Positions 3,641-55,133 are shown, counted from the first letter of the stretch. The stretch: 64,000 bases of DNA from Candidatus Doudnabacteria bacterium RIFCSPHIGHO2_12_FULL_48_16 (GCA_001780035.1 MFEY01000007.1:123155-187154), one strand, 5' to 3'. The notes: generated by a model from the sequence alone, not told the origin. Translations and numbers: made by a program.

Positions 3641-3943
3641 ATGACACTGTTCCGTGAGGCCTTACGACTGCTGGAGGTCGAGGCTGGATTTCTCGCTCGC
3701 GGCACCAGGGCCCTGGCCGAGATGCGCCAGGGTGGCGAATTGCTGGAACTGATCTTTGACGCTACCACGAGCCCGTTCAAATACGGACTGGAGTTGCTGG
3801 GCAGGCTTCTGACTGCTTCTGATGAACTGTCTTCGGATGAACAGCTCGAGACCGTGGCGCTGGCCCGCAAACTCCAGGCGGATTACCCGGACATCCCCAA
3901 GATCCTGGAAGTGACCAGCGGCATCATCGCCAAGCACGGTTAA
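3641..3943 (+). CDS. small hypothetical protein (~100 aa), GC-rich island gene
   Basis: ATG preceded by 'aggagga' RBS; GC visibly higher than flanks; own terminator downstream. Confidence 0.45.
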   Translation: MTLFREALRLLEVEAGFLARGTRALAEMRQGGELLELIFDATTSPFKYGLELLGRLLTASDELSSDEQLETVALARKLQADYPDIPKILEVTSGIIAKHG

Positions 3944-3970
3944 GCCGGAGACGGTAACTAACACAGCTAG

Positions 3971-4010
3971 ACCAGCTTTCGTGGGCAACCGCGAAGCTGG
4001 TTCTTTTTTT
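3971..4010 (+). terminator. rho-independent terminator
   Basis: 'accagctttcgtgggcaaccgcgaagctggt' stem-loop followed by a T-run of 8. Confidence 0.5.
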
Positions 4011-4100
4011 ATTTCAATTTTGCTATAATTATTGTGCGACATAAAGCAAAATTCCAAATGACAAATAACAAATCCGATTGAACTTATTAACCCCCTCATC

Positions 4101-4162
4101 TGTCCGATCTAGGGATCGGACATCTTCTCCCGCGAGGGGAGAAGATGAAATGTAAAAAATGA
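4101..4162 (+). promoter_or_regulatory. two tandem perfect hairpins plus a 5-codon leader ORF overlapping the recombinase start
   Basis: 'tgtccgatc-tagg-gatcggaca' and 'tcttctccc-gcga-gggagaaga' hairpins; 'atgaaatgtaaaaaatga' (MKCKK) whose TGA overlaps the ATG at 4159; SD-like 'gagggga' lies in the right arm of hairpin 2. Confidence 0.35.
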
Positions 4163-5142
4163 CAGAATCCAAAACTAAACTTCAGCGCTACTCTCTCCAA
4201 TTCCTAGAGTATCTCGAGATCGAGCGCAATCGATCCAAGCTCACTTTGCGCAATTATGACCACTACCTCAAGAGGTTTGTGGATTTTTGCGCCAAACAGG
4301 GCGTGACGGATCCGGAAGATATCGATCTGGAATTGGTGCGATCCTATCGCCTCTTCCTCAATCGGCTGAGCCCAAAGGACAAAACGCTCAAAGTCATCAC
4401 CCAAAATTATCATTTGATTTCCCTGCGCAGTTTCCTGAAATATCTGGCCAAGCGCGATATCAGCTCGCTCGCCCCGGAAAAAATCGAACTACCCAAAACC
4501 CCGGCACGGCATCCGGAATTCCTAAACACCGAAGAAGTCGAACGGCTGATCGAGGCCACCCAGTCCGAAAAAAACAAACTGACCCGGCTGCGCGACGAGG
4601 CTATTTTCAAAACCCTGTTTTCCACCGGCCTGCGCATTTCGGAACTGACCAACCTCAAGCAGGACCAGGTCAACTTAAAGCGCGGCGAATTCAGCGTGCG
4701 CGGCAAGGGCGACAAGTTGCGCGTCGTTTTCCTCTCGGATGAATCAGCGCAAGCCTTGGCCAAATACCTGGAGGCGCGCGAGGATAATTCCAAATATTTA
4801 TTCATCCGCCACAAAGCCAAAGAGTCGGTGGAGAAACAAATCGAATCCATGGGCGAGGTCAAAAACGGGTTAACGCCCCGCTCCATCCAGCGCCTGATCA
4901 AAAAATATGTAAAAATTGCGGACATGTCCGCCGGAGGCGGATCCGCCCTTGGCGGAAAAAAAATCACCCCGCACACTTTGCGGCATAGTTTTGCCACTGA
5001 TTTGCTGGCCAATGGCGCAGACATCCGGGCGGTGCAAGAAATGCTCGGCCATGCTTCAATTTCTACCACGCAAATCTATACTCATTTAACCAATAAACGC
5101 CTCCACGACATCCACGAACAATTTCACAATAAGGGGAAGTAA
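4159..5142 (+). CDS. tyrosine site-specific recombinase, XerC/XerD family
   Basis: 327 aa; N-terminal SAM-like domain; C-terminal 'HTLRHSFATDLLANGADIRAVQEMLGHASISTTQIYTH' with catalytic R..H..R..Y. Confidence 0.85.
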   Translation: MTESKTKLQRYSLQFLEYLEIERNRSKLTLRNYDHYLKRFVDFCAKQGVTDPEDIDLELVRSYRLFLNRLSPKDKTLKVITQNYHLISLRSFLKYLAKRDISSLAPEKIELPKTPARHPEFLNTEEVERLIEATQSEKNKLTRLRDEAIFKTLFSTGLRISELTNLKQDQVNLKRGEFSVRGKGDKLRVVFLSDESAQALAKYLEAREDNSKYLFIRHKAKESVEKQIESMGEVKNGLTPRSIQRLIKKYVKIADMSAGGGSALGGKKITPHTLRHSFATDLLANGADIRAVQEMLGHASISTTQIYTHLTNKRLHDIHEQFHNKGK

Positions 5143-5167
5143 CTCCCCCGCTGACCCTAGACTAACG

Positions 5168-5241
5168 CACCCCCTCTTATTTTAAGAGGGGGTGATTTTA
5201 AAAACCTCCCCTTAATATAAGGGGAGGTGGCCCGAAGGGCC
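5168..5241. terminator. three consecutive perfect palindromic stem-loops between convergent genes (bidirectional terminator or REP-like element)
   Basis: 'caccccctctta-ttt-taagagggggtg' (12-bp stem), 'cctcccctta-ata-taaggggagg' (10 bp), 'ggccc-gaa-gggcc'. Confidence 0.5.
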
Positions 5242-5248
5242 GGAGGGG

Positions 5249-7996: not shown

Positions 7997-8001
7997 TTTG
8001 A

Positions 8002-8226
8002 TTATTTATTGCCCATGTCATTCGTGCACGCTCTGCAGTTCGATTTGTGGGTAAAAACTTCATAAACCGCCGCGAGCCCAACCAGCACATAAATCACGTT
8101 CAGCACAGTCATACTCAGGCCCCAGGTGGCGATATCCCAATTCCAGACCTTGAGCAGCCAGTTAAGGCCGCCAATCACGAGCAGAACGAAAGAAACTGAG
8201 TGTAGACCTTTGTGATGTCCCATCAT
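8002..8226 (-). CDS. DUF378 family small membrane protein (YuzA-like)
   Basis: 74 aa; 'LLVIGGLNW...YVLVGLAAVYEV' matches the DUF378 consensus. Confidence 0.55.
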   Translation of the reverse strand: MMGHHKGLHSVSFVLLVIGGLNWLLKVWNWDIATWGLSMTVLNVIYVLVGLAAVYEVFTHKSNCRACTNDMGNK

Positions 8227-8287
8227 TTGTTGTTCACCCCCTTTACGATAAAGGATTGCTTGTGTTCAGTATAACACGATAACAAGG

Positions 8288-8932
8288 TTATTTAAGCTTC
8301 TCGTCGATTTTTAATTTCAGAGTTTCAAACACCGGAACCCCGACCATTTTTTCATCGTTGAGGAAAAATGAGGGCGTGGAATTGATTTTCAGCGCTTCAC
8401 CATCGGCTCGGTCGGTTTTAATCACGTTGGCAAATTTTTGCTGATCCAACGCTTGGCGGAATTTGGTGACATCCAATCCCAAACTTTCCGCATAACCAAT
8501 CAGGAAACCTTCCGCCTGTGAACCTGCCCATTCGCTTTGCTTTTCATACAGCAAATCGTGCATTTCCCAAAACTTGCCCTGCTCGGCTGCGGCCTCGGCC
8601 GCCTCGGATGAAATTTCGGCGGCATTGTGGATCTCAGTCAGCGGAAAATTCCGAAAAACGAAAGTAAAATCCGGATTGTCTTTGTAGGCTTCAACGATCT
8701 GTTTGAGCACCGGGTGCGCCGCGGCGCAGGCCGGACATTGATAATCGCCGAATTCCACCAGCGTGACTTTGGCCCTGGCTCCGTGAGTGCCGTGGCTGTC
8801 ATCGCGAACCAGTTTGCCCAAATCCGCCGGTGGCACGAATTTTTCCGTTTTCGGGCCGAACTTGGCCAGCGCCCAGCCGCCGAGGATTATTACCAGGCCG
8901 ACGCCGATTAAAATCTTGGCTTCTTTATTCAT
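8288..8932 (-). CDS. DsbA/BdbD-like thiol:disulfide oxidoreductase, membrane anchored
   Basis: 214 aa; N-terminal TM; thioredoxin-fold 'EFGDYQCPACAAAHP' CxxC motif. Confidence 0.75.
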   Translation of the reverse strand: MNKEAKILIGVGLVIILGGWALAKFGPKTEKFVPPADLGKLVRDDSHGTHGARAKVTLVEFGDYQCPACAAAHPVLKQIVEAYKDNPDFTFVFRNFPLTEIHNAAEISSEAAEAAAEQGKFWEMHDLLYEKQSEWAGSQAEGFLIGYAESLGLDVTKFRQALDQQKFANVIKTDRADGEALKINSTPSFFLNDEKMVGVPVFETLKLKIDEKLK

Positions 8933-9022
8933 CCCGTTTAGAAATTTCCATAGTTAATAATTAAATTATTCATAATCCTTAGGGTTAAATATTCTATCAC
9001 AAATATACTTCGGGTCAAATTT

Positions 9023-9448
9023 CTAACGGGATTCATGTTTTTTAAGATTAATGATCATGATAACGTTAATGGTCAAAAAAGAAAGCAGGGACAGCAACGG
9101 AATAGTAACGAAACTCAGCCATTCAATCTGCCGGGTCGTGCAAGAGATGCCGATCGTGCAAGGCGCCAAAGATTCCGGGATAAGATTGTAATAAAGCAGG
9201 TTGTGATAAATTGAAATCGCCAGGCCAATCAAGGAAAGCGGCAAGACATACAGCGGTAGATTGCTATCTTTTTTTAAAATCCCGACGGCAATTATGGCCA
9301 CCAGCGGATACATGAAAATGCGCTGATACCAGCACAAAACACAGGGCGGCAGGCTCATAATATATTGAAAATACAAACTGCCGGTCGTCGCCAGCGCTGC
9401 AATGATCCAGGCCGCATACGAACCATATTTATGGAATAAATTTGTCAT
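9023..9448 (-). CDS. disulfide bond formation protein B (DsbB/BdbC type)
   Basis: 141 aa; four TM helices; 'PCVLCWYQRIFMYP' CxxC in the first periplasmic loop; adjacent to the DsbA-like gene. Confidence 0.7.
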   Translation of the reverse strand: MTNLFHKYGSYAAWIIAALATTGSLYFQYIMSLPPCVLCWYQRIFMYPLVAIIAVGILKKDSNLPLYVLPLSLIGLAISIYHNLLYYNLIPESLAPCTIGISCTTRQIEWLSFVTIPLLSLLSFLTINVIMIINLKKHESR

Positions 9449-9463
9449 ATTTTGGCTAATTTT

Positions 9464-10084
9464 TTAAATTCTCAGTTTGATTATATTACTTTCATAGAAC
9501 GAATACAAATGGTAAATGCTGCCGGCCGTCAACAGATGAAACGCGCCACGGCCATTAAAAATCTGCCGCGGATCGCAATAAATTTTATTGACATCCAGGA
9601 GCCAAAAAATCGTGCCGACAGTAAGCAGCGCCATGGCCGGATTGCGGATCAGTTCGGGCTGGCTGGCCAAGACCGCCAGGACGAAGCCGCCAATAATCAG
9701 CGTCCCGGTATACCCGCGGAATAAAACGATTGCTGCCATGGCGCCCACTATCACAAGAATTTGAAAAATTATCAGCTTCCTGGCGGCAATCTTGTTTTTC
9801 AGATTCAAAAATATCAAGGTGTGCAAAAAAATATAAATGGCGAACAGATCCAGCAACTGTGTCACGAAATTATCCTTGGTATCATAAGCAAAGGACATGC
9901 TGGCAATGAACAACAACAATCCGGCGAAAATTTGCGATAATCGGCTGCCCCGGCCTTTGACCAGTATCGCAACCGCAGCGAAACCATAGGCAAAATTGCT
10001 AACCGCATAAAACGGCCGGGCAATCAGCCAGTTGCCGGCCTTCTCGCAGTATTCGATTGTTGCCGGTAAATTTAAAAACTCCAT
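9464..10084 (-). CDS. ceramidase-like (alkaline ceramidase/CREST superfamily) membrane hydrolase
   Basis: 206 aa; seven TM helices; 'EYCE...SNFAYG', 'QLLDLFAIY', 'HLLTAGSIYHLYSFY' resemble conserved ACER blocks (WCEENY...SN, QLLDE, H..TG..Y). Confidence 0.45.
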   Translation of the reverse strand: MEFLNLPATIEYCEKAGNWLIARPFYAVSNFAYGFAAVAILVKGRGSRLSQIFAGLLLFIASMSFAYDTKDNFVTQLLDLFAIYIFLHTLIFLNLKNKIAARKLIIFQILVIVGAMAAIVLFRGYTGTLIIGGFVLAVLASQPELIRNPAMALLTVGTIFWLLDVNKIYCDPRQIFNGRGAFHLLTAGSIYHLYSFYESNIIKLRI

Positions 10085-10093
10085 TTTTAATTT

Positions 10094-10504
10094 TTATTCG
10101 GAAGCCCGGCCTTCAAACTGTTCACTGTCTGTTTCCGCTTGTTGTTTGGTGACGTGCACCACGCCATCACGATGATGGGGCGGAGAATACAAGGTATATA
10201 ATTTCAAAAAATCGGTTGTGGAAACATTGATGATGTTATGTTTGCATCCCGCCGGCACAATTAAAACGTCTCCCTCGGCCAGATCATAGCTGGCGCCGGC
10301 CACAGCGGCCCGGCCCTGCCCTTTTTCGAGCCGAAAAAATTGGTCCCCCTCATGAATTTCCTCCCCAATCTCCTCACCCGGTTTAAGGCTCATTAGGACC
10401 AGCTGGCTGAATTTGGCCGTATACAAAACCTGGCGGAAGTTCTCATTGGCCAGAGTCAGCCGTTCAATATTGTCCTTATATCCTTTCATAAATTTGATTA
10501 ACAA
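10094..10504 (-). CDS. cupin domain protein
   Basis: 136 aa; cupin_2 core 'GEEIHEGDQFF...GDVLIVPAGCKHNIINV'. Confidence 0.6.
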   Translation of the reverse strand: MLIKFMKGYKDNIERLTLANENFRQVLYTAKFSQLVLMSLKPGEEIGEEIHEGDQFFRLEKGQGRAAVAGASYDLAEGDVLIVPAGCKHNIINVSTTDFLKLYTLYSPPHHRDGVVHVTKQQAETDSEQFEGRASE

Positions 10505-10541
10505 AGCTTAATTACCACTCGTTCGTCATCTCGCGTGCTTG

Positions 10542-11084
10542 TTACTTCTCAATTAGCTTGCCTGGCTGCCAGGGGGTCCCGAAAGCCGGCAGAATCCAGC
10601 GATCCAAACCCATCCAGCCCGCCACCCGCCAAGCCAGAATCAGGAACAATTGCAGCAACAGTAAAATCGGATTGGTACTGACCGTCCCGGCCAACAAAAA
10701 ATTCAAATTCATAAACGTGCCGAAAAAAGCGGCAATGCCGGTAAAAATCCCGAGAATCAAGGCGACGCCCACCGCAATTTCTCCGTAAGTAATCAAATGC
10801 GAAAGCAATGCGGTATTCGGCAACGCTGCGTTTTGAATAAACGAAGCATACCAGCCTTGCACATCCGGATGCGCACCGGAAGTTTTATTAAGCGCGCCCA
10901 TCAAAAAACCTTTCACGGCAGTGCCGGCATTGCTGCCGACCCAGGCCGGATTGTGAAATTTTTCCCAACCGGCCATAAACCATTCATAACCGACATAGAG
11001 CCGGACGATTAGCCAAAACCAAGACGAGCTGGTGTTGGCAAACAATAAACGGGAAATTTTTGGTTCCGGGATATGACTTATCAT
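10542..11084 (-). CDS. DoxX family membrane protein
   Basis: 180 aa; 'RLYVGYEWFMAGWEK' DoxX N-terminal motif; four TM helices. Confidence 0.6.
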   Translation of the reverse strand: MISHIPEPKISRLLFANTSSSWFWLIVRLYVGYEWFMAGWEKFHNPAWVGSNAGTAVKGFLMGALNKTSGAHPDVQGWYASFIQNAALPNTALLSHLITYGEIAVGVALILGIFTGIAAFFGTFMNLNFLLAGTVSTNPILLLLQLFLILAWRVAGWMGLDRWILPAFGTPWQPGKLIEK

Positions 11085-11098
11085 AAAATTTTAATTAA

Positions 11099-11464
11099 TT
11101 ATTTTTTGTTTATCTGATAGAAGTAATACAACGCCAATGGCGCGCCCCAGTTGGCGAAGCGTTCGATAAAATCCAGCCAACCAACGCCGACCAGCGGCCG
11201 CACCAGCGCGGTCCAGAATCCCCAAAACACCGCCCACAATAAAACCCAATTAATGGGCTTGATAAGAACTATTAACGCGACCAGTATATCGGCCGCGCCC
11301 ACAATCAGCAATAAAGTGTGCGCGGTCGGATTGCTGACATGGGTTAGCTGCATGATCCATTTGATCCAGTCAGCCTTGCCTTGCAGCCCCAACAGCCCAT
11401 GACCCAAAAACTCACCCGCCACTCCGATCCGGAGCGCCCACTCCATTTTCTGCGTATTTGACAT
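11099..11464 (-). CDS. DoxX-like small membrane protein
   Basis: 121 aa; four hydrophobic helices, Trp-rich; tandem with the DoxX gene. Confidence 0.35.
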   Translation of the reverse strand: MSNTQKMEWALRIGVAGEFLGHGLLGLQGKADWIKWIMQLTHVSNPTAHTLLLIVGAADILVALIVLIKPINWVLLWAVFWGFWTALVRPLVGVGWLDFIERFANWGAPLALYYFYQINKK

Positions 11465-11580
11465 GTGTTTGTTTCTTAATGATTTTTATCCTTATTTATT
11501 ATACTCCTATGCAAATCCGAAGCAAACCGGCTCAAACCTATTGACCATTCAGGTTTTTTGGGCTAAAATATTCAAGCATT

Positions 11581-11604
11581 CCCGCAGGCGCGGGGTATTT
11601 TTTT
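11581..11604 (+). promoter_or_regulatory. terminator-like hairpin directly abutting the ABC-F start (possible attenuator)
   Basis: 'cccgc-aggc-gcggg' + 'tattttttt' ending 1-8 nt before the start codon; no SD; an upstream 11-codon ORF 'MQIRSKPAQTY' at 11508-11543. Confidence 0.35.
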
Positions 11605-13093
11605 GAAAACCATGAGAAAAGACAGCGTCATTTTAAGCTTCGCCAACGTCAGCTTCGAATACGGGCACGACAAGATCGTGCTCGACGAAGTTTCATTTGG
11701 CGTGCGCACCGGCAGCCGGATCACGCTCATGGGCCAAAACGGGGCCGGCAAAAGCACCTTGTTTAAAATGATCACCGGCGAAATCAGGCCCCAAAACGGC
11801 CGGATCAACTTAACGCCGACCGAGGCCACAATCGCCATCGCCCACCAGGTTATGCCTAAAGATTGCCTCCACCTGAATGTGCGCGAATACTTTGCCACCG
11901 CCTTTGAGGACAAAAAATACGATCTGGACCGGCTGATTGCCAATGTGTTTGAAGTGGTCAATGTCCAGCTGTCCTTGGATAAAAAAATTAATGAGCTTTC
12001 GGGCGGCCAGCAGGCGCGCCTGCTCCTGGCCCACGCCTTAATTCAGGACCCGGATATTTTACTGCTCGATGAACCGACCAATAATCTCGACCGGCTGGGG
12101 ATCGAGCATCTGACCGGATTTTTGATGATGTATGAAAAAACCTGCATTGTCATTTCCCATGATGCGGATTTTTTGAACGCATTTTCCGACGGGGTCTTGT
12201 ATCTGGATGTCTTCACCCACAAGGTTGAACAATATACCGGCAACTACTATGACGTGGTCGGGGAAATCGAAGAACGGATTCAGCGCGAGCAGCAGCAGAA
12301 CGCCCGGATGCAGGCCCAAATCCAGGAAAAACGTTCCCAGGCCGAAGTCTTCGCCCACAAGGGCGGAAAATTAAGAGCCGTGGCCAAGCGCATGCGCGAA
12401 GCCGCGGAAGAAGCGGAAGAGAATCTGGTTGACGTGCGCCAAGAAGATGAAACCATCCGGAACTTCACCATCCCGGCCCAGGAATTTGACATTCACTTCC
12501 ACGGCAAAGTTATCGAATTCACTTCGGTTGGCGCCATCAAAAATCACCAACCTGTGACAAAACAACTTGAGCTTATAATCAAAAAAGGCAAGCACCTGCT
12601 GATTGCCGGGCGCAACGGGAGTGGCAAAAGCACCTTGCTCGAAAAAATCGCTACCGGCTCAGGCAGCGGTTTTACCATCGCCCCGGGAGTTAAAATCGGA
12701 TATTACAAACAGGATTTCAGCAACTTTTCCGCCAGAGGCGGAGATTTCGACCAAACGGCCTATGACTCGCTCCTGGAAGTTATGAAAGCCAAGGATGAAC
12801 ACAAATTGCGCGCTGCCAGCGCCGGCTTCCTGCTTAACGGCAAATTGCTCAACAACCCGATCCGCGCGCTCTCCGAAGGGCAAAAGGGCCTTCTGTCTTT
12901 TTGCCGCCTGTCGCTGCTCAATCCGGGGCTCCTGATATTGGACGAGCCGACCAACCATATCAATTTCCGGCATTTACCCGTGATTGCCAAAGCTCTCGAT
13001 GAGTATCAGGGCGCTATGATTATGGTTTCCCATATCCCCGACTTCATCGCCCAGATCCGAATTGACGAAACGATCGACCTGGATCAAATTTAA
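11603..13093 (+). CDS. ABC-F family ATPase (two ABC cassettes, no TM domains)
   Basis: 496 aa; two Walker A sites ('GQNGAGKST', 'GRNGSGKST'), two signatures ('LSGGQQARLLLAHAL', 'LSEGQKGLLSFCRLSL'), acidic coiled linker between them. Confidence 0.85.
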   Translation: MKTMRKDSVILSFANVSFEYGHDKIVLDEVSFGVRTGSRITLMGQNGAGKSTLFKMITGEIRPQNGRINLTPTEATIAIAHQVMPKDCLHLNVREYFATAFEDKKYDLDRLIANVFEVVNVQLSLDKKINELSGGQQARLLLAHALIQDPDILLLDEPTNNLDRLGIEHLTGFLMMYEKTCIVISHDADFLNAFSDGVLYLDVFTHKVEQYTGNYYDVVGEIEERIQREQQQNARMQAQIQEKRSQAEVFAHKGGKLRAVAKRMREAAEEAEENLVDVRQEDETIRNFTIPAQEFDIHFHGKVIEFTSVGAIKNHQPVTKQLELIIKKGKHLLIAGRNGSGKSTLLEKIATGSGSGFTIAPGVKIGYYKQDFSNFSARGGDFDQTAYDSLLEVMKAKDEHKLRAASAGFLLNGKLLNNPIRALSEGQKGLLSFCRLSLLNPGLLILDEPTNHINFRHLPVIAKALDEYQGAMIMVSHIPDFIAQIRIDETIDLDQI

Positions 13094-15771: not shown

Positions 15772-15791
15772 ATCTTCACCCCCTTTCGATA

Positions 15792-17793: not shown

Positions 17794-17867
17794 AGTAAAG
17801 TCTCCTTAATTCAGGATATACCCCCTAGGGGTATCTGTCAAGTCAAGTAAAAAGGGGAACCAGTTTT

Positions 17868-40228: not shown

Positions 40229-40313
40229 TGGGCCAAGGGTTTGTTTGCCCAGGCTCGGCAAATCTGCTATATTTGAGTGTCCGATTTCGGACACCAAAGG
40301 AGTGAAAAACGGG

Positions 40314-41018: not shown

Positions 41019-41112
41019 CCACAGATGCGCAACACGGTCTGGCTGATTGTTCTCCCCTTCAACCGGGAAAACCTCAGTCCAGACCGTGCCTCACTTTTTT
41101 TATAAGTTAAAT

Positions 41113-42501: not shown

Positions 42502-42510
42502 AATTTTATC

Positions 42511-43482: not shown

Positions 43483-43487
43483 AAAAT

Positions 43488-44507: not shown

Positions 44508-44508
44508 A

Positions 44509-45348: not shown

Positions 45349-45350
45349 TT

Positions 45351-45866: not shown

Positions 45867-45924
45867 ATTTTTATCCTATCATTTTGGTTTTAATAATTCA
45901 ATCGCTTTTTTACCGAGCGGCTTT

Positions 45925-46449: not shown

Positions 46450-46502
46450 GGATAAAAAAATTAAACGCGGGGGGGAGCCAGATTCGCTGACTCCACCACC
46501 CT

Positions 46503-47480
46503 CTACACCCTGACCACTTGCCGCTGCCATTGCCGCACGATGTCGGAGAAAGCGCCGCCTTGCGACAGTAACTCCTCCGTTTCCGGGCTGGCCAACAAAC
46601 CAGCCGGTTGCGTCCAGCAGCGGAACCCAACCGAGGGTTCGGGCAGGTCGTTCGCCTTGGCGCCGGTGGGATTGAACCAGAGGAACGGCACGCCGCAATT
46701 CTGGGCCAATCCGCCATCTTTGCGCCAATCGTCGCCGCACATCACGGTGTGCGACCGCATGTCTTCGGTCACCGCCTGATCGAGGCGCAGCCCGCGGATC
46801 CTGGCCCACTGCTTGTGAACCAGCGTCATCAGAAACGGGCTCGGCTTGACCCGACGGTGGGACTCAATCTCGCCCATACCCCGCAGGTCGTCGTCGCTGA
46901 GCATGATCGGCGGCACCGGCAGACCCCACGAACAGAAGGTCCGACGGATGAACTGCTCGTGGCCGGAAGAGATGATGGCAACCAGGATGTCGACATCATG
47001 GTGGCGGTTGAGCCAACTGATCGCATCCAGGAAGCTCGCCAAGCCCGAACACTGCTGCGGCCAGCAACTGCCGTTGTCCATCTGGGCTCCAACCTGCTCC
47101 ATCAGGTAGCTGAGCTTGAGCCGCACCAGCAGCTCGGTAATCGCACCGGCCGGGGCATTGTCGTCCCATTCAAGCGATAGGCCCTTGCCCGCTGGCACGC
47201 AGTTGCCCAAGCGGTGAACGTGCCGTTCGTGGAACGCCCGGGCTGAATCGACTAGATTGTCAAACGGCCCCTCGCTCAGCATGTGCTGAATCAGTTCGCC
47301 CGGCGTGCGGTTTTGCAGGCCGCCCACCCGGTCGAAAACCTCGGGACCTTGGGCTCCGAACAGTTCGCTGACCGCATTCTGATACGCTTCGGTTACGCCA
47401 AGTCCCCCCGGACCCGGTTTGAAGGTATCAGCCACGGTCCCGTCGAAATCCATGACGACGAGATAGTCGGCTGTAGTCAA
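46503..47480 (-). CDS. HAD superfamily hydrolase, GC-rich
   Basis: 325 aa; motif I 'VVMDFDGTVADT'; HAD fold. Confidence 0.55.
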   Translation of the reverse strand: MTTADYLVVMDFDGTVADTFKPGPGGLGVTEAYQNAVSELFGAQGPEVFDRVGGLQNRTPGELIQHMLSEGPFDNLVDSARAFHERHVHRLGNCVPAGKGLSLEWDDNAPAGAITELLVRLKLSYLMEQVGAQMDNGSCWPQQCSGLASFLDAISWLNRHHDVDILVAIISSGHEQFIRRTFCSWGLPVPPIMLSDDDLRGMGEIESHRRVKPSPFLMTLVHKQWARIRGLRLDQAVTEDMRSHTVMCGDDWRKDGGLAQNCGVPFLWFNPTGAKANDLPEPSVGFRCWTQPAGLLASPETEELLSQGGAFSDIVRQWQRQVVRV

Positions 47481-47531
47481 ATTGGGTCCTCCTCTAAAAT
47501 CCTTCGCGAACGCAAAATTAAATTAGCTGAT

Positions 47532-48308
47532 CTACCGGTGCTGAAAATATCTGACGGCGTTTTGAAACAATTGTAAACCCGGACCATCTTTCGGCAGCGC
47601 CCGGCCGGCGCGCAAGTGTTCTTCCTTCAGCCTAGTCCAGTGCGGCAGCTGGGTAAAACTGATCGCCCGCTCCGGGTGGGGCATGAGCCCCAGGACTCTT
47701 CCTTCATATGATAAAACAGCGGCAATGTTATTCAAAGAGCCGTTCGGGTTAGCCGGCAAATCTTCGCGCCGGCAAATATCCCCTTTGGCGTAAGTCGCGG
47801 CAATCCGCTGCGCTTTTTTGAGCTGGTTTAAGGTTTTGGGCTCGGCAAAATATTTGCCCTCACCGTGGGCAATGGGCACAGATAGCATGTTGATACCGGC
47901 CAACCAGGGACTTTTGCCTTCAATCTTGATATCGACCCAGCGGTCGATATAGCGGGCCGAATCATTGAACACCAAAGCGCCCGGCAGCAAACCGAGGTTG
48001 GTTAAAATCTGAAATCCGTTGCAAATGCCAATGACCAACTTGTCCGATTCGACAAATGTCTGCAGCTCGCCGGATAAATGATTTTTAAATTTATTGGCAA
48101 AGGCCTTGCCCGAACCGGTGTCGTCCCCAAATGAAAATCCGCCCGGCACGGCCAGGATCTGATAGTTTTTCAGTTTCTTAATGCCGCGGATTAGATCATT
48201 CAAATGCACGATCTCGGCGCTGCCGCCGGCTCGTTCAAAGGCAAACGCCGTTTCTTCTTCGCAATTGAGTCCGTATCCGGACAAAACCAAAATTCTGGGC
48301 TTGAGCAT
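47532..48308 (-). CDS. purQ: phosphoribosylformylglycinamidine synthase, glutaminase subunit
   Basis: 258 aa; 'ILVLSGYGLNCEEET', catalytic 'GICNGFQIL', His/Glu near the C-terminus. Confidence 0.85.
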   Translation of the reverse strand: MLKPRILVLSGYGLNCEEETAFAFERAGGSAEIVHLNDLIRGIKKLKNYQILAVPGGFSFGDDTGSGKAFANKFKNHLSGELQTFVESDKLVIGICNGFQILTNLGLLPGALVFNDSARYIDRWVDIKIEGKSPWLAGINMLSVPIAHGEGKYFAEPKTLNQLKKAQRIAATYAKGDICRREDLPANPNGSLNNIAAVLSYEGRVLGLMPHPERAISFTQLPHWTRLKEEHLRAGRALPKDGPGLQLFQNAVRYFQHR

Positions 48309-48311
48309 GAA

Positions 48312-51284
48312 TCAGTATCCTTTAAATGCGGACTTATAAGCCTTGTGCGCCTCGGCCAAGGACAGTTTGGCCACGGTCTGGCGGCCATTTTGAATCTGGA
48401 TCGAATCGGTATCGGTCACCTGGCCCATCAGGGCCGAACTGTTACCGGCCATCAGGGCTTCGAATTCGCTTTGGTTTTTCGGATTGATGGTCACCAGCAG
48501 CCGACCCTGGCTTTCCGAAAACAGCCGCTGCTGTGAGCTCGCGGCTTGGCCAGGCAAGGCGGCCAAATCAACTTTCGATCCCAACTTGCCCCCAAGCGCG
48601 GTTTTGGCCAAGGCGAGAGCCAATCCGCCGCGGCCGACGCTGATGCTGGATGCGATCAAATCCTTTTGAACACATTTATAAAAATCCGAATAAAGTTTGC
48701 GGTTGCGCAGACAATCAACCTGTGGCACGTTTTGGCCGGTAAACTTCTCGCCCAGCTCCTCGCTAACCATGGCCATATATTCGGATCCGCCAAGTTCGTC
48801 ATCGGTCCGACCAAGCAGATAAACCAAATCCTTGGGCGTCTTGGCATCGAGCGAGACAACCTTCGTAACATCCGGAATCACACCAATGGAAGTTATAAGG
48901 AGCGTGGGTAAAATGGAAATGGTCACCGGTCGGCCCTTCTGGTCAAACCCGGAAAAATCGTTAAACATGCTGTCCTTGCCGGAAATAAAGGGAGTTTCGT
49001 AAAGCAGCACGTGGTCAAAGCAGCTACGCACCGCTTCCTTGAGCTGGAACAACCGCTTGGGATCGGTCGAGGAGCACCAACAAAAATTATCAAGCAATGC
49101 CAGCATCTCGGGATCAGCGCCTGCCGCCACGGCATTGCGGATGGCCGTATCAATGGCTGCGCCGGCCATGCGGTAGCTGTCGAGCTCGGCATAAGAAGGA
49201 TTAATGCCATAAGAGAGAACCACGCCGCGGTTGGAGGTTAGCAACGGTTTGCTGACTGCGCAATCGCCGCTGACCCGCCCCGGGCCCTGCAGGGGCTTTA
49301 AGACCGACGTACCCTGGACTTCATGGTCATATTGCGTGCTCACAAATTCGGTGCTGGCGAGGTTTAACCGGCCCAGCATTTTAAGCAACTCCGGGCCGTA
49401 ATCTTTAACCGGGCGCAGAGGCCCGGCTGATCCGACAACTTTGACTGCTTGGGATTTAAGCTGGAGTTTGGGCAAACCGTGGTGCAAAAATTCCATAGTC
49501 AGATCAATCAAAGTCTGCCGCTTGTGCTTGACCACGCAGCGCCCCGAATCGGTAAACAGACCGATAACGGTGGCCTCGCTGCCGCGCGCCTGCAACAATT
49601 TTTTCAATTTCAGCCACTTATTCTTCGGCACGGCCAGGGTCATGCGCTCCTGCGATTCCGAGATCCAAATTTTCCATGGCTCAAGACCGGGATACTTGAG
49701 CGGCACTTTGTCCAGCCAGACCAGGCAGCCGCCGGACTCCTTGGCCATTTCCGGCACGGAGCTCGACAAGCCTCCGGCGCCGTTGTCCGTAATGCTGCGG
49801 TAGAGCCCGAGGTCGCGAGCCTCTTTGACCAACGCGTCGCTGAATTTTTTTTGAGTGATCGGATCACCGATCTGGACCGCGGTGGCGGGACTGCCGGCAT
49901 CAATGCCTTCGGACGAAAACGTGGCCCCGTGAATGCCATCCTGGCCGACGCGGCCGCCGACCATGACAATGTAATCGCCCGGTCGGGCTTGTTTTTCGTA
50001 AAGCTTAAGCCCACGGGCGCGTTTGGGAATCAAGCCGACGGTGCCGGCAAAAACCATGGGCTTGCCGCGGTAAGAATCGTCAAACAGCATAAACCCCAGG
50101 GCGGTGGGAACGCCCGAGCAGTTCCCGCCGACGTTGATGCCACGAATCACCCCTTCCATAATACGCTTGGGCGGCAAGATTTTTTGGGTTAAATTGGAAT
50201 CGCGATAAAGCGGCCGCCGATCACGCGGATCGGCGAAACAAAATCCATAAGTGTTAATAACAGGCTTGGCGCCCAGGCCAAAACCGATGGTATCGCGGTT
50301 AACGCCAACAATCCCGGTAATCGCCCCGCCAAACGGATCAAGGGCCGAGGGCGTATTGTGAGTTTCCACTTTGTGCGTGATCAGATAATTTTGGTCGAAT
50401 TCAATCGCCCCCGAATTGTCGGTAAAGACCGAGGCACAAAAATCCTTATCGCCTTTTTTCTGGCGGATAATTTCCGTGGCGCGCTTGATGTAGGTTTTAT
50501 AAAGACCATCCTTGATTTCATCCAAAGGGTTGGCAAAAATCGTATGTTTGCAATGTTCGCTCCAGGTTTGCGCCAGGGCTTCCAGCTCCACGTCAGTCGG
50601 GTTGCGCTTTAAAAACGCAAACTGCTTTTGGATGGCCTTCATATAAGGCAGGCTTAGGGCCAGGGGTCCCCGCCGGCTGCCGTCGGGATTGGCAATGCCT
50701 TGTTTGCCGATTTTGACCAGCTCTTCATCTGGAACATTGAGGTTGACTTGCCGAACCAGCTTGCCGGGCCGCAGGGCAACTTTTGGCACGACGCGCCCCA
50801 AGCCGCGGTCGCGGACGAATTGGCGATAATTTTTTATCTGGGCCCGCTGGATCAGCGGATTGTGAAGCGAGCCGGCAATTTTGTCCACTTCGTCCTCGGT
50901 CAGCTTACCTGTAATAAAAAACAGCTGCGAGCTGTAAATGCTTTCGCTGGCCTTAAATTTTTTGCCCAACAAGTCGGAGGCGGCTTCGGCCGCAGTGGCG
51001 CCCACGTTATCGGTCACGCCCGGCAAAAAACCGATTTCAATAACCCAATCAAACCGCCCTTGGGGCTTGCTGGCATTGATCGTGATCTCTTCGGTCAGCG
51101 GATTGGCCAGAGACTGCCCGATTTGGCGGGTTTGCGCCGCGGTCAGCGCCGCATCCACCATATAAGAGTCAACCACCAAGACGCGTTTAATTTTGCCCTT
51201 TAGCCCCAGGTTTTCGAAGTTTGCCTGTTTGACCCAGCCGCGCGTGTCCGGAACTTTGAATTTGATGTCTAATCTGGTGGCCAT
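48312..51284 (-). CDS. purL: phosphoribosylformylglycinamidine synthase, fused PurS-PurL
   Basis: ~990 aa; N-terminal PurS-like 80 aa ('MATRLDIKFKVPDTRG') then PurL AIRS/AIRS_C duplications; start placed at the Met after a likely spurious 24-codon extension. Confidence 0.85.
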   Translation of the reverse strand: MATRLDIKFKVPDTRGWVKQANFENLGLKGKIKRVLVVDSYMVDAALTAAQTRQIGQSLANPLTEEITINASKPQGRFDWVIEIGFLPGVTDNVGATAAEAASDLLGKKFKASESIYSSQLFFITGKLTEDEVDKIAGSLHNPLIQRAQIKNYRQFVRDRGLGRVVPKVALRPGKLVRQVNLNVPDEELVKIGKQGIANPDGSRRGPLALSLPYMKAIQKQFAFLKRNPTDVELEALAQTWSEHCKHTIFANPLDEIKDGLYKTYIKRATEIIRQKKGDKDFCASVFTDNSGAIEFDQNYLITHKVETHNTPSALDPFGGAITGIVGVNRDTIGFGLGAKPVINTYGFCFADPRDRRPLYRDSNLTQKILPPKRIMEGVIRGINVGGNCSGVPTALGFMLFDDSYRGKPMVFAGTVGLIPKRARGLKLYEKQARPGDYIVMVGGRVGQDGIHGATFSSEGIDAGSPATAVQIGDPITQKKFSDALVKEARDLGLYRSITDNGAGGLSSSVPEMAKESGGCLVWLDKVPLKYPGLEPWKIWISESQERMTLAVPKNKWLKLKKLLQARGSEATVIGLFTDSGRCVVKHKRQTLIDLTMEFLHHGLPKLQLKSQAVKVVGSAGPLRPVKDYGPELLKMLGRLNLASTEFVSTQYDHEVQGTSVLKPLQGPGRVSGDCAVSKPLLTSNRGVVLSYGINPSYAELDSYRMAGAAIDTAIRNAVAAGADPEMLALLDNFCWCSSTDPKRLFQLKEAVRSCFDHVLLYETPFISGKDSMFNDFSGFDQKGRPVTISILPTLLITSIGVIPDVTKVVSLDAKTPKDLVYLLGRTDDELGGSEYMAMVSEELGEKFTGQNVPQVDCLRNRKLYSDFYKCVQKDLIASSISVGRGGLALALAKTALGGKLGSKVDLAALPGQAASSQQRLFSESQGRLLVTINPKNQSEFEALMAGNSSALMGQVTDTDSIQIQNGRQTVAKLSLAEAHKAYKSAFKGY

Positions 51285-52672: not shown

Positions 52673-52894
52673 ATGGCATGGTATGGAGATTCCAAAGGGC
52701 ATGCGGAAGCGGGCCGCAAAGGCGGCAAGGCTCAGGGCCAACGCAATAATCCCGGCAATTTTGCCAACGATCGTGAAAAAGCCAAACGGGCCGGCCAAAA
52801 AGGCGGCTCTGCCAGTCCCAACCGCACGATGCTGGTGCGAAATCGCCCGCAAGAAGAGACGGTCAACCAAAAATATGGAGTGGTCAGCCGTTAA
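52673..52894 (+). CDS. KGG-repeat general stress protein (YciG/con-10-like)
   Basis: 73 aa; repeated 'KGG'/'RKGG' motifs, Gly/Lys/Gln-rich. Confidence 0.55.
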   Translation: MAWYGDSKGHAEAGRKGGKAQGQRNNPGNFANDREKAKRAGQKGGSASPNRTMLVRNRPQEETVNQKYGVVSR

Positions 52895-53984: not shown

Positions 53985-53997
53985 AATAAAATTACTC

Positions 53998-54072
53998 TGG
54001 TGCGTCCGGAGGGAATCGAACCCCCAATAACGGTTCCGAAGACCGTTGTGATATCCGTTTCACCACGGACGC
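53998..54072 (-). tRNA. tRNA-Arg (TCG)
   Basis: acceptor GCGTCCG/CGGACGC, D-stem GTGA/TCAC, anticodon stem ACGGT/ACCGT with loop CTTCGGA, T-loop TTCGATT, CCA encoded. Confidence 0.7.
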
Positions 54073-54141
54073 CTAAATAGCCCAAAAATCATAGCATTTT
54101 TAAGCCTTGAAATCAAAGATTTAGGGTGTTAAGCTAGAGGC

Positions 54142-54351
54142 ATGCAGAACGGCGACAAAATTATGAATGTTGAGGAATTGTCCAAATTTTTTGGCGTGTC
54201 CAATCAAACCATCTGGCGCTGGTGCAAATCAGGAAAACTGCCGGCTTTTAAGATCGGCTCCCAATGGAAAATCCGCCAGTCCGACATTAATAAGATTATC
54301 AGCCAAAAAATTGAAAAAAAGAAAGCGGACAATCAGGCCAAGCTATTCTAA
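54142..54351 (+). CDS. excisionase/MerR-like HTH DNA-binding protein
   Basis: 69 aa; 'MNVEELSKFFGVSNQTIWRWCKSGKLPAFKIGSQWKIRQSDI' (HTH_17-type). Confidence 0.6.
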   Translation: MQNGDKIMNVEELSKFFGVSNQTIWRWCKSGKLPAFKIGSQWKIRQSDINKIISQKIEKKKADNQAKLF

Positions 54352-54355
54352 ATTA

Positions 54356-54652
54356 ATGAAGTTATTCCAGCGGCGGAAAGAAAATTTTACCTGCGGGCAT
54401 TGCGGATTCCAAGTGACCGGCACCGGCTATACCAATCATTGCCCGAAATGCTTGTTTAGCAAACATGTGGATGTAAACCCAGGAGACCGGAGCGAAATTT
54501 GCCAGGGGCTCATGAAACCGATTGGGGTGGAGCAAAAATCGGGCGAATATATCATCATCCACAAATGTAGAAATTGTAAAGCGATTAAAAAAAATAAATC
54601 TGCGCCCGAAGATAATTTTGACCTAATCCTCGAACTGACCCAAGCTCCCTAA
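54356..54652 (+). CDS. RNHCP domain protein (native-composition paralog)
   Basis: ~98 aa from Met 54356; 'FTCGHCGF...YTNHCPKCLFSKHVD...HKCRNCK'. Confidence 0.55.
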   Translation: MKLFQRRKENFTCGHCGFQVTGTGYTNHCPKCLFSKHVDVNPGDRSEICQGLMKPIGVEQKSGEYIIIHKCRNCKAIKKNKSAPEDNFDLILELTQAP

Positions 54653-54711
54653 GGGGGCTTTTAAATTTAGCGCAAAAACCTTATACTATGGTGGATCTAC
54701 AAGGAGGCTTG

Positions 54712-54912
54712 ATGACTGAACAACAGGCCGCGAATCTGACGCCCGACCAACCCATCATCATCCGCAAGAAAGGCCGCGTCCACCCGGCGACATTCCTCCG
54801 GCATCTGGGCAAGGGCCTACTCCTGTCAGAGTGCAGGATGACGGTACGGGTCGTGACGCTCGCCGAGGCCGACTTACCCCCAACGCCGATCAACACCCCG
54901 GAGGCCTCGTGA
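54712..54912 (+). CDS. small GC-rich hypothetical ORF (66 aa)
   Basis: 'aggagg' SD before ATG 54712; GC-rich. Confidence 0.3.
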   Translation: MTEQQAANLTPDQPIIIRKKGRVHPATFLRHLGKGLLLSECRMTVRVVTLAEADLPPTPINTPEAS

Positions 54913-55133
54913 CCGCCGACACAGCGCACCAGCTCAAGCCGGGAACAAAGTTCTTGGCGGAAGGCTACAACAACGGCACCAGCATCTGCCGGTTCCGACA
55001 GGCTCTTCCGGCCACCGTCATCAGCGTGGATCCGGAGGGGATCACCGCCGTGCTCGTTGGGGAAGGCTGGTCCACCCGCCACGTGCCGTTCGACCTGGCC
55101 CACCAGATCGCGGAAAAAATCACGAGCAAGTAG
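54908..55133 (+). CDS. small GC-rich hypothetical ORF (74 aa), GTG start overlapping the previous stop
   Basis: GTGA overlap; followed by two terminators. Confidence 0.3.

Follow-up and report, generated by a model that had tools for sequence, protein, structure and literature searches.

Self-contained GC-rich genes with strong Shine-Dalgarno sites in AT-richer surroundings of a Candidatus Doudnabacteria genome

Results

Gene content and base composition

The DNA analyzed here (the window) is a stretch of 64,000 nucleotides belonging to a groundwater population of Candidatus Doudnabacteria (CPR/Patescibacteria) in the Rifle aquifer. Base composition was ranked over 75 genes in the window, with gene calls taken from public assemblies, and the eight genes with the highest GC content were exactly those labelled U1, U2, U3, U4, U5, U6a, U7a and U7b, which are distributed over seven units. 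These units, the purine operon, and U6b, the neighbor of U6a, are as follows (positions in the window).

3564-4011, + strand: U1 cassette; promoter-like site 3564-3592, AGGAGG 3631-3636, ORF 3641-3943, hairpin and T-run at about 3970-4011
17845-18446, - strand: U2 cassette; promoter-like site 18446-18418, AAGGAGG, ORF 18368-17868, hairpin overlapping the stop codon, T5
25209-26146, + strand: U3 cassette; promoter-like site 25209-25237, AAGGAGG, ORF 25260-26114, 12-bp hairpin, T7
36734-37291, + strand: U4 cassette; perfect TTGACA-17-TATAAT 36786-36814, GGAGGAG, ORF 36855-37145, hairpin with 21-bp arms, T-run
40245-41101, + strand: U5 cassette; promoter-like site 40245-40273, palindrome 40277-40294, AAGGAG, ORF 40314-41018, long hairpin, T7
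41113-51284, - strand: purine operon, a compositional patchwork of 33-62% GC
45925-46449, - strand: U6b, AAA_28 P-loop kinase-like gene, 174 aa, GC 0.522, GC3 0.583, z=-1.0, no Shine-Dalgarno site
46453-47493, - strand: U6a cassette; AGGAGG 47493-47488, TTG start at 47480, ORF to 46503, hairpin, T7 just before the next gene
54660-55208, + strand: two-gene U7 cassette; promoter-like site 54660-54687, AAGGAGG, U7a 54712-54912, U7b 54909-55133, hairpin, T9

The GC content of the unit genes lies between 0.58 and 0.64, compared with 49-55% in typical housekeeping genes, and is 7 to 23 points above that of their 1.5-kb flanks (0.38-0.52), which bears out the main observation of the initial annotation, namely the presence of GC-rich units in AT-richer surroundings. 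Its definition of the units needs some correction: of the stretch 45925-47480, proposed as one unit, the HAD-like gene (46503-47480) is GC-rich (62.4%) while the AAA_28 gene is ordinary (52.2%), and the description as single-gene units holds except at 54712-55133, where two translationally coupled genes are found.

Core genes of the window have about 50-55% GC, a GC3 of about 0.53-0.69 and essentially no Shine-Dalgarno (SD) sites; the housekeeping genes rpsO and pnp show ordinary GC3 values (0.63-0.66). An AT-shifted class (33-46% GC) takes in a sugar-modification cluster, a block of regulator and hypothetical-protein genes, and purB, purC and purM. Genes of this class make up around 35% of the window and have synonymous-site z-scores of -5 to -16 relative to core codon usage, so that the AT-richer context is a more deviant part of the window than the GC-rich genes.

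When synonymous GC was evaluated with amino acids and the codon usage of core genes taken into account, the excess was strong in U5 (z=+8.2), U3 (+5.1), U6a (+4.5) and U7b (+3.8), for which the proposed compositional deviation therefore persists after allowing for amino-acid bias; it was marginal in U7a (+2.4), U4 (+2.3) and U1 (+1.8, below significance), and not significant in U2 (+0.8). The GC content expected from amino acids alone is 0.56-0.60 in the units and 0.42-0.55 in most other genes, with a few at 0.56-0.60, and amino-acid composition accounts for the whole GC excess of U2 and for most of that of U1 and U4. The unit proteins are the richest in Gly, Ala, Arg and Pro, all eight being taken in by nine of the ten top ranks of GARP minus FYMINK content.

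The base-composition-normalized dinucleotide signature (delta*), which in coding DNA depends partly on GC level, gave a distance of 190.6 between units and core genes, compared with 34.8±10.8 (maximum 75.9 over 500 draws) for equal-sized core subsets. Distances were 17-127 among units, about 100-115 between units and GC-rich bacterial contigs, and 154-240 between units and CPR DNA. The core and AT-shifted classes were at 12-100 from the CPR contigs L022, L101 and L041 and at 152-183 from L023, a Doudnabacteria contig of 39% GC, the AT-shifted class lying at 76 from the core and at 12 from L022. The composition expected of horizontally acquired genes was thus found in the set as a whole, and singly in U3, U5, U6a and U7b.

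Shine-Dalgarno sites and terminators

SD strength, calculated as the duplex energy with a canonical anti-SD, was between -8.2 and -12.1 kcal/mol in all eight GC-rich genes (-10.3 in U1), while the median for the other 67 genes was -1.4 kcal/mol, equivalent to random background (-1.8 for 20-mers). Energies of -7 kcal/mol or lower were found in 8/8 unit genes and 6/67 others (Fisher p=1.8e-7), confirming the association between AGGAGG-type sites and the GC-rich genes. The hexamer AGGAGG itself occurs 22 times in the window, where 19.8 copies are expected, and so shows no overall enrichment; the five copies placed before gene starts are all at units. An SD in the form AAAGGGGGTGA is present at a few genes of core composition, so the ribosome can evidently use such sites. 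At U3, the GGAGG core is kept by the orthologues in other species amid changes in the adjoining bases, which suggests that the SD sites may be functional; since very strong canonical SD sites are kept between species, the ribosome probably still reads them.

A hairpin followed by a T-run is present after every unit, a more general result than the initial proposal that most units had a terminator of their own. Folding energies were -22.7 (U1), -21.7 (U4) and -19.2 (U7b) kcal/mol, and -20.1 (U2), -32.2 (U5) and -21.2 (U6a) kcal/mol, with z-scores of -3.2 to -6.8; in U3 the 12-bp stem precedes the T7. In each GC-rich unit, a promoter-like -35/-10 site, an AGGAGG-type SD of high strength, GC-rich codons for a product rich in Gly, Ala, Arg and Pro, and a terminator of its own make up an insulated cassette. 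Rfam matches in the window were limited to four tRNAs, and the GC-rich stretches are therefore not genes for structured RNAs. No repeat or sequence motif common to the units was found, indicating that they did not arise by copying of a single mobile element.

Support from independent assemblies

The whole window, including every junction, is tiled by 21 contigs, which were drawn from more than 12 assemblies and differ from it by 0-1.5 mismatches per kb. Across each unit and junction run 3-6 contigs obtained from separate samples and with separate assemblers. The same unit context appears on 14 to more than 23 contigs of ENA, JGI, NCBI and Logan assemblies. This within-species evidence all comes from one nearly clonal population; the U3 junctions also recur in two other Doudnabacteria species.

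U3 and U2

U3 (284 aa, GC 0.606, GC3 0.768) has an MBL fold (Pfam Lactamase_B_2, 55.8 bits, cut-off 27) and an HWHGDH motif, but scores only 43 bits against NCBIfam PhnP (equivalog cut-off 272), and is therefore predicted to be an MBL-fold hydrolase of a PhnP-like group, putatively a phosphodiesterase; PhnP itself is a phosphoribosyl cyclic phosphodiesterase. It is about 60% identical, without gaps over 284 aa, to proteins of Thermomicrobiales, Anaerolineaceae and Bacillales; one of the Thermomicrobiales relatives is encoded on a contig of 65.3% GC by a gene with 63.7% GC and a GC3 of 0.835. A tblastn search of plasmids with U3 returned matches at 23-25% only.

Orthologues of U3 occupy the same locus in L022 and L023 (87% and 67% amino-acid identity), beside the same APH-DegT-epimerase-DegT cluster as in the window. 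Both retain the AAGGAGG/GGAGG site and the terminator, and both are 15-19 GC points above their immediate neighbors, which belong to the AT-shifted sugar cluster. GC3 falls stepwise from 0.835 in the Thermomicrobiales-like gene to 0.768 in the window and then to 0.611 and 0.586 in the orthologues; the value in L022 (0.611) is no higher than that of the pilus genes of that genome (0.55-0.62), its sugar cluster being at 0.31-0.38. Synonymous divergence is saturated, with a third-position identity of 0.43 at identical residues, and neither the elevated GC nor the SD has been lost over a protein divergence of 33%. Judging from these comparisons, the transfer of U3 would be old, before the split of the three Doudnabacteria species. 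The persistence of its GC elevation and SD fits slow amelioration, and selection in place fits as well.

U2 (166 aa, GC 0.619) carries an RNHCP zinc-ribbon domain (PF12647, 104.2 bits, cut-off 24), which is 48-49% identical to those of actinobacterial genes (Nonomuraea, Streptomyces) versus 39.6% to the paralogue in its own window. It had no match in PHROG or PADLOC.

U5, U6a and the purine operon

Two units had been placed in or against the purine operon, and this location is correct: U6a lies inside it and U5 is convergent with purB. Along the operon, GC content is 0.548 in purL, 0.517 in purQ, 0.624 in U6a, 0.522 in U6b, 0.488 in purE, 0.327 in a 279-aa ORF, 0.330 in purM, 0.358 in purC and 0.412 in purB, while the equivalent operon in other CPR has a uniform GC content. 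The best matches of purL are from CPR and DPANN.

U5 (234 aa, GC 0.643, GC3 0.877) is a stand-alone IMP cyclohydrolase/MGS-like PurH domain, as judged from Pfam MGS (30.1 bits, cut-off 24.1), positions 55-195 of NCBIfam purH (E=1e-22) and PDB PurH chains (residues about 51-191, E=1e-14); the stand-alone ForH also matches, and the AICAR transformylase domain is absent from U5. Among 1.84 billion representatives, its relatives with E<1e-30 are, besides itself, two 50%-identity clusters. Scanning metagenomes with U5 alone as query yielded no match, and scanning with a U5 alignment yielded relatives at 27-34% only, mostly on contigs of 56-69% GC, and no donor. U6a (325 aa, GC3 0.776) is HAD-like with a DxDxT motif and has 76 homologues among 5.8 billion proteins; every named match is from CPR, and the homologues are situated in purine operons. 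U6b is its conserved partner there: the pair was found in 6/80 CPR/DPANN purL loci and was absent near purL in the Doudnabacteria contig L101, and in other CPR both genes have host-like GC without elevation.

U5, U6a and U6b are thus regular members of CPR purine operons and not alien in function, so that the notion of alien insertions into this operon has to be abandoned in favor of genes conserved in CPR-type operons, with distant relatives. No close donor-side relative was found for U5 (best 50%) or U6a (best non-self 43%), which speaks against transfer. Candidates for purine-pathway steps that lack an assigned gene in CPR are the HAD-like/AAA_28 pair and the 279-aa ORF, and the patchwork itself indicates that even a small symbiont-like genome builds a pathway from pieces with different histories.

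U1, U4 and U7

U1 (100 aa, GC 0.591, GC3 0.713) is placed between rpsO and a gene for a Xer-type tyrosine recombinase, the latter of core composition. U4 is a 96-aa orphan (GC 0.581, GC3 0.732) flanked on both sides by an imperfect direct repeat of 29 nt (36734-36762 and 37263-37291); its single-sequence structure model was unusable (pLDDT 46). U7a (66 aa) and U7b (74 aa), with a GC of 0.63 and GC3 of 0.79 and 0.84, are coupled through a GTGA start/stop overlap, with GGAGG before U7b, and lie between tRNA-Arg and tRNA-Lys after an excisionase-like HTH_17 gene and an RNHCP gene. None of the four had a family match in Pfam, NCBIfam, PHROG or PADLOC, and viral-contig scans with U1, U4 and U7b returned no relatives. 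These genes therefore remain unplaced, and the viral-contig, PHROG and PADLOC scans give no sign of an origin in phages or defense systems.

Discussion

The eight GC-rich genes hold up as genuine, self-contained units of expression, and they represent a type of event that is already familiar. They are probably xenologues from GC-rich, SD-using bacteria, which would have donated genes to Doudnabacteria at different times, and whose genes would be only partly ameliorated toward host composition. Imported units may have been retained because they function on their own in a host that starts translation without SD, and U5 and U6a may have taken the place of purine-pathway genes, or supplemented them, through xenologous displacement. 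The horizontal acquisition originally proposed is consistent with the foreign dinucleotide signature, the GC-rich-type proteins, the SD sites, the Chloroflexota-like relatives of U3 and the greater proximity of U2 to actinobacteria, although in the case of U3 it was not recent. Two other Doudnabacteria loci each contribute a further gene of this class, an ORF of 57.5% GC led by AAGGAGG in L023 and a fatty-acid desaturase gene of 58.6% GC led by AGGAGG in L024. A difference in taxonomic affinity between units and flanking genes, the other expectation, is seen for U3 (about 60% to non-CPR proteins) and weakly for U2, with purL being of CPR/DPANN affinity, but not for U6a, whose named matches, all at 43% or less, are CPR. 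We infer the direction of transfer and the identity of donors, and a donor can be named for none of U1, U4, U5, U6a and U7.

A different explanation, which we consider possible but clearly less probable, is that these are native genes whose composition and SD are maintained in place, with two modes of initiation, one on SD-less, A/U-rich, unstructured leaders and another relying on a strong SD for GC-rich structured mRNAs. This would agree with the conservation of the U3 SD core and terminator in three species amid differing surrounding bases, with its GC above immediate neighbors despite saturated synonymous divergence, with the functional affiliation of U5, U6a and U6b to the purine operon and their distant, mostly CPR relatives, with the core-like synonymous codons of U1 and U2, and with the SD sites at a few core-composition genes. 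It does not agree with a normalized signature unlike that of core or CPR DNA, the host-like GC of the U6a and U6b homologues in other CPR, the 60% identical U3 relatives in GC-rich non-CPR bacteria of matching composition, or a U3 GC3 that declines along with that of each host, the behavior expected under amelioration; moreover, no function or family is common to the unit proteins. The contrast could also be viewed from the opposite side, if the sugar cluster, the regulator block and purB/purC/purM were foreign or fast evolving and the GC-rich genes near native composition. The larger deviation of the AT-shifted genes and the GC3 of the U3 orthologue in L022, which is similar to that of the pilus genes and higher only than that of the AT-rich sugar cluster, are in line with this idea, but we regard it as unlikely: every core gene in the window is below the units in GC, four units are significant against the core reference, the AT-shifted class retains the core/CPR signature from which the units depart, and the idea covers the size of the contrast and not the association with SD.

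An explanation of the high GC as a side effect of amino-acid composition or expression-linked codon bias seems very improbable for the set, even if the amino-acid-expected GC of the units is already high and explains U2 and much of U1 and U4, given the large synonymous excess that U3, U5, U6a and U7b keep and the ordinary GC3 of rpsO and pnp; besides, proteins rich in Gly, Ala, Arg and Pro are themselves predicted by a GC-rich origin. As for chimeras of assembly or binning, in which GC-rich reads from other organisms were joined into a CPR scaffold, an origin that the initial annotation had left open, the abrupt change in composition at unit borders is its sole support, and we consider it refuted by the reproduction of every junction across independent assemblies, the recurrence of the U3 junctions in two other species, and the fact that unit borders fall on functional signals (SD, terminator) and not on arbitrary points.

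Several known systems offer parallels. Compositionally atypical, horizontally transferred genes reportedly undergo amelioration, in the framework of Lawrence and Ochman, and the units resemble such genes in their GC and GC3 offset, their distinct dinucleotide signature, the donor-like relatives of U3 and the displacement of GC3 in its orthologues toward each host genome. They depart from the usual picture in that they include at least one old member, with synteny between species, and in that most lack a nameable donor, and from multi-gene islands with mobility genes in being single genes or one pair, cut exactly from SD to terminator. Among island traits (integrase, tRNA-adjacent insertion, direct repeats), U7 is flanked by tRNAs, U1 lies by a recombinase and U4 has repeats, and none has all three. 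Like integron cassettes, the units are small, mostly single-ORF and of diverse, often unknown function, each provided with a ribosome-binding site and, on the 3' side, an inverted repeat. Unlike them, they have a promoter-like site and a rho-independent-type terminator instead of attC, with direct repeats at U4 only, and they do not form a tandem, uniformly oriented array next to an integron integrase (intI/attI) but lie dispersed between housekeeping genes, over 51 kb (from 3.6 to 55 kb) and on either strand; no common 3' element was found, the repeats detected being unit-specific. Clusters of polysaccharide or O-antigen type are persistently low in GC, as is the AT-shifted APH-DegT-epimerase-DegT-FemAB cluster next to U3 in three Doudnabacteria species, a parallel that concerns the context of the units and not the GC-rich units themselves. 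With regard to translation, there is a subgroup of Parcubacteria in which detection of an anti-SD motif in the 16S rRNA often fails (PMC9297842). The absence of SD from most genes in the window is in keeping with SD-poor lineages, but unlike in that subgroup a minority class has very strong canonical sites kept between species.

Composition jumps in genomes of uncultured CPR, often distrusted, can thus be real and reproducible, and the near-perfect link between high GC and strong SD, in a genome that elsewhere dispenses with such sites, provides a simple marker, based on sequence only, by which genes of foreign type can be recognized in these lineages. A further question to which this link leads is how imported genes are dealt with when translation is otherwise poor in SD. 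A more speculative and rather improbable extension is that Doudnabacteria, and perhaps other SD-poor CPR, hold long-lived "plug-and-play" GC-rich cassettes from GC-rich bacteria, each with a promoter, canonical SD and terminator of its own, selected for high GC and SD dependence, with two translation-initiation regimes coexisting; were that the case, the donors, possibly hosts (e.g. Chloroflexota), could give clues to which organisms these episymbionts live on.

Gene content and assembly support

The window comes from a CPR/Patescibacteria population of the Rifle aquifer. Its overall GC content is 47.7%. Besides part of a purine operon and an operon for type IV pili, it contains pnp and rpsO, genes for metal homeostasis and thiol oxidoreductases, a cluster for sugar modification, response-regulator genes and four tRNAs. 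The gene set used here consists of 75 genes, obtained by moving the gene calls of public assemblies onto window coordinates.

The proteins of the GC-rich units recur residue-for-residue, and with identical gene context, on many public contigs, including the 282-kb ENA scaffold ANAN16-1 scaffold_30, the JGI metagenomes 3300002502, 3300025311 and 3300025323, and four NCBI MAGs (GCA_001777705.1, GCA_001780075.1, GCA_001777855.1 and GCA_001777635.1). More than 12 assemblies contribute 21 contigs of this population, which together cover the window from end to end at 0-1.5 mismatches per kb, with 3-6 contigs crossing every unit; this excludes the chimeric assembly that had been proposed as an option in the initial annotation. 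The only variable spot across these contigs is an ABC-F gene (11612-13093), where strain variants diverge and which holds 43 of the 76 variable sites. In one strain variant (contig L010, 14688-18278, corresponding to window positions about 8000-11600) the genes after ABC-F are a GIY-YIG gene, dnaG and rpoD, in place of the cupin/DoxX/DsbB/DsbA block.

Composition of the GC-rich units

The GC content of the seven units (U1-U7) is 0.58-0.64, versus 0.38-0.52 in their 1.5-kb flanks, in agreement with the contrast noticed in the initial annotation, and the top eight positions in a GC ranking of the 75 genes are occupied by exactly the eight genes U1, U2, U3, U4, U5, U6a, U7a and U7b. Synonymous GC excess (z) was calculated conditioned on the amino-acid sequence of each protein and on the codon usage of the core genes, i.e. 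the class with around 50-55% GC.

Genes of the GC-rich units, with synonymous GC excess. All except U6b are among the eight GC-richest genes.
U1: 3641-3943; z=+1.8, marginal
U2: 17868-18368; z=+0.8, no excess
U3: 25260-26114; z=+5.1, strong
U4: 36855-37145; z=+2.3, marginal
U5: 40314-41018; z=+8.2, strong
U6a: 46503-47480; z=+4.5, strong
U6b (AAA_28 gene): 45925-46449; 52% GC, core-like; z=-1.0, no excess
U7a: 54712-54912; z=+2.4, marginal
U7b: 54909-55133; z=+3.8, strong

Two of the units had to be redefined. The stretch 45925-47480 holds two genes, of which the HAD-like U6a is GC-rich but U6b is not, and 54712-55133, while GC-rich as described, is not a single gene but two coupled genes with a shared GTGA start/stop overlap. 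Once amino-acid bias was accounted for, the deviation vanished in U2 and nearly so in U1, and the rest of the GC-rich genes still deviated. In the same synonymous test the AT-rich neighbours stray from core codon usage much further than the units do (purM, -14.6; a 752-aa ORF, -15.8; purC, -10.7; sugar cluster, -5 to -6.5), and therefore the AT-richer context is no neutral background. Two further genes with mildly raised GC and a strong AAGGAG Shine-Dalgarno (SD) sequence, encoding a DUF1573 protein (17290-17793; 55.0% GC) and a KGG-repeat stress protein (52673-52894; 56.3% GC), have core-like synonymous codons and are perhaps older representatives of this class.

Translation and transcription signals

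An AGGAGG-type SD precedes all eight GC-rich genes and a stable hairpin followed by a T-run was found after every unit, so that the strong SDs attributed to each unit, and the terminators attributed to most, in the initial annotation were borne out. A sigma-70-like -35/-10 site is present at a sensible distance in six of the seven units; that of U4 is perfect (TTGACA-17-TATAAT), the evidence for the others being only suggestive because nine-of-twelve matches are common by chance.

The SD duplex energy of the eight unit genes ranges from -8.2 to -12.1 kcal/mol, versus a median of -1.4 in the other 67 genes, indistinguishable from random 20-mers (-1.8), and values of -7 or lower are reached by 8/8 unit genes and 6/67 of the others (p=1.8e-7). 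The AGGAGG motif is not enriched in the whole window (22 found, 19.8 expected), and only five copies are located ahead of gene starts, all of them belonging to units. The few core-type genes that do have an SD use another form, AAAGGGGGTGA (4 matches versus 0.47 expected), which may be the native form of the ribosome-binding site. This sequence precedes three non-unit genes (DUF378, DUF305 and a 202-aa ORF) at 8234-8242, 15776-15784 and 29137-29145 (minus strand), and in the sister species L022 it is found ahead of a pilin-like gene. In a published survey, the anti-SD motif often went undetected in a subgroup of Parcubacteria (PMC9297842).

Origin of the units

Dinucleotide relative abundance takes base composition out of the comparison. 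The signature distance (delta*) between the pooled units and the core genes is 191, with equal-sized core subsets giving 35±11 against the remaining core (maximum 76 in 500 draws). Distances are 17-127 between units, about 100-115 to GC-rich bacterial contigs and 154-240 to any tested CPR sequence. The AT-shifted class of genes (33-46% GC) retains the CPR signature, with a delta* of 76 to core and of 12 to L022. Amino-acid make-up shifts much more slowly than codon usage, and all eight unit genes are in the top ten of the window for proteins rich in Gly, Ala, Arg and Pro and poor in Phe, Tyr, Met, Ile, Asn and Lys. Dinucleotide signature, protein make-up and translation signals are independent signs of foreign origin.

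U3 encodes a hydrolase with an MBL fold, which belongs to the PhnP-like group and carries an HWHGDH motif (Pfam Lactamase_B_2, 55.8 bits), although its score falls short of the PhnP equivalog cut-off. A comparison of best matches, suggested in the initial annotation, gave an answer that differed between units: the best relatives of U3 outside Doudnabacteria are non-CPR, with about 60% identity across gapless 284 aa (those named belong to Thermomicrobiales, Thermomicrobiaceae, Anaerolineaceae and Bacillales), but every named match of U6a is CPR. Orthologues of U3 exist in two other Doudnabacteria species (87% and 67% protein identity), at the same locus and divergent from the same APH-DegT-epimerase-DegT cluster; in both, they are 15-19 GC points above this adjoining AT-shifted sugar cluster and retain an AAGGAGG/GGAGG site and a terminator, nearly all surrounding genes being without SD. 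In L022 the GC3 of the gene (0.611) does not exceed the values for the genome's own pilus genes (0.55-0.62). GC3 declines stepwise from the Thermomicrobiales relative (0.835; gene 63.7% GC, on a 65.3% GC contig) to the window (0.768) and the sister species (0.611 and 0.586), and at identical residues the differences are overwhelmingly G/C in the window and A/T in the sisters. These features would fit an ancient transfer out of a GC-rich donor, with partial amelioration afterwards in hosts of differing GC; the event is not recent.

To the right of U3, gene content in the two sister species is different from that of the window. Three contigs from independent assemblies (L002, L003 and L010) stop exactly 31 bp past its stop codon (26145), within the terminator T-run, and this position looks like a recurrent breakpoint of rearrangement or strain variation.

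In this SD-poor CPR genome the units are real, insulated expression cassettes whose composition is of foreign type, and they were probably acquired horizontally, from GC-rich bacteria and at various, partly ancient, times. Two further Doudnabacteria loci each hold another member of this GC-rich, SD-led class: a 331-aa ORF of no known family (L023, 5057-6052; 57.5% GC in a 39% GC contig, led by AAGGAGG) and a fatty-acid desaturase gene (L024, 1122-1874; 58.6% GC in a 46.6% GC contig, led by AGGAGG). The pattern is therefore a trait of the lineage and extends beyond the window. The main rival explanation is that the units constitute a native, selected, SD-dependent gene class; with the signs of foreign origin described, we consider this rather unlikely and favour acquisition. 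The original observation was correct and its interpretation half right, given that chimerism is excluded, the U3 event is not recent and the units in the purine operon are parts of the pathway. Phenomena of this kind are already known; what seems worth following is how tightly GC and SD are coupled, that this coupling persists from one species to another, and the purine operon with its patchwork of compositions.

Units in or beside the purine operon

U5 corresponds to the IMP cyclohydrolase (MGS-like) domain of PurH on its own, U6a is a HAD-like hydrolase carrying a DxDxT motif, and U6b a kinase-like P-loop protein of the AAA_28 type. Of 80 CPR/DPANN purL loci, six hold homologues of both U6a and U6b, always inside the operon, two more U6a homologues are likewise in purine operons, and distant U5-like genes are present at 11/80 loci; these genes are therefore pathway components and not alien insertions. 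In other CPR genomes the homologues match host GC, and so the composition of the purine units is anomalous in this genome although their function fits the pathway. GC along the co-directional operon is 0.548 (purL), 0.517 (purQ), 0.624 (U6a), 0.522 (U6b), 0.488 (purE), 0.327 (a 279-aa ORF), 0.330 (purM), 0.358 (purC) and 0.412 (purB). A set of 5.8 billion proteins yielded just 76 homologues of U6a (best non-self identity 43%), and one relative is on a 61% GC purL-purQ contig; for U5, a set of 1.84 billion representatives contained, besides U5 itself, no more than two clusters at 50% identity with E<1e-30. A GC-rich donor with the same operon type, unsampled so far, is plausible.

The genes purB, purC, purM and the 279-aa ORF (no known family), at 41113-45348, have 33-41% GC, GC3 of 0.24-0.46 and z values of -6 to -15 versus core, the GC-rich units reaching at most +8.2. 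The HAD-like/AAA_28 pair recurs in diverse CPR purine operons (L035, L041, L047, L074, L075, L103, L104 and L105) and the 279-aa ORF, which adjoins purE, at 9/80 purL loci; the pair and the ORF, which lie within 44509-47480 of the window, are candidate genes for pathway steps that are unassigned in these CPR. The 990-aa PurL shares 55-63% identity with proteins of many CPR bacteria and DPANN archaea (Aenigmarchaeota, Woesearchaeota, Nanoarchaeota and Iainarchaeum; loci L024-L103), and these identities suggest an operon type that would be common to, or exchanged between, the small-celled CPR and DPANN organisms. In front of U5, a perfect palindrome (GTGTCCG-ATTT-CGGACAC, 40277-40294) separates the promoter-like site from the SD; it may serve as a binding site for a regulator or form a hairpin in the 5'-UTR.

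Small units

No family match was found for U1, U4, U7a and U7b in Pfam, NCBIfam, PHROG or PADLOC, nor viral relatives for U1, U4 and U7b. Certain features of U2, U4 and U7 hint at insertion events, short of proof. In its RNHCP domain, U2 shares 48-49% identity with genes of Nonomuraea and Streptomyces and 39.6% with the AT-richer RNHCP paralogue of the window (54356-54652), which itself shows only 38% identity to those genes. U7 lies downstream of this paralogue and an excisionase-like HTH_17 gene, between tRNA-Arg and tRNA-Lys, and U4 has a 29-nt imperfect direct repeat on both sides.

The 1.2-kb block at 53998-55329 (HTH_17, RNHCP, U7a and U7b), flanked by tRNA-Arg(tcg) and tRNA-Lys(ctt), has a setting typical of integration, and an integrase is absent from it. 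The ~29-nt repeat (ATGGGGTYRCAT..GGATGTTMGAA) is present only at the U4 locus, in three copies (36543-36577, 36734-36762 and 37263-37291), two of which enclose the U4 cassette in full. Between the first two copies lies a GC-rich palindrome, GCCTGCCTGCCGGCAGGCAGGC (36693-36714); repeats and palindrome could represent the scar of an insertion or an operator.
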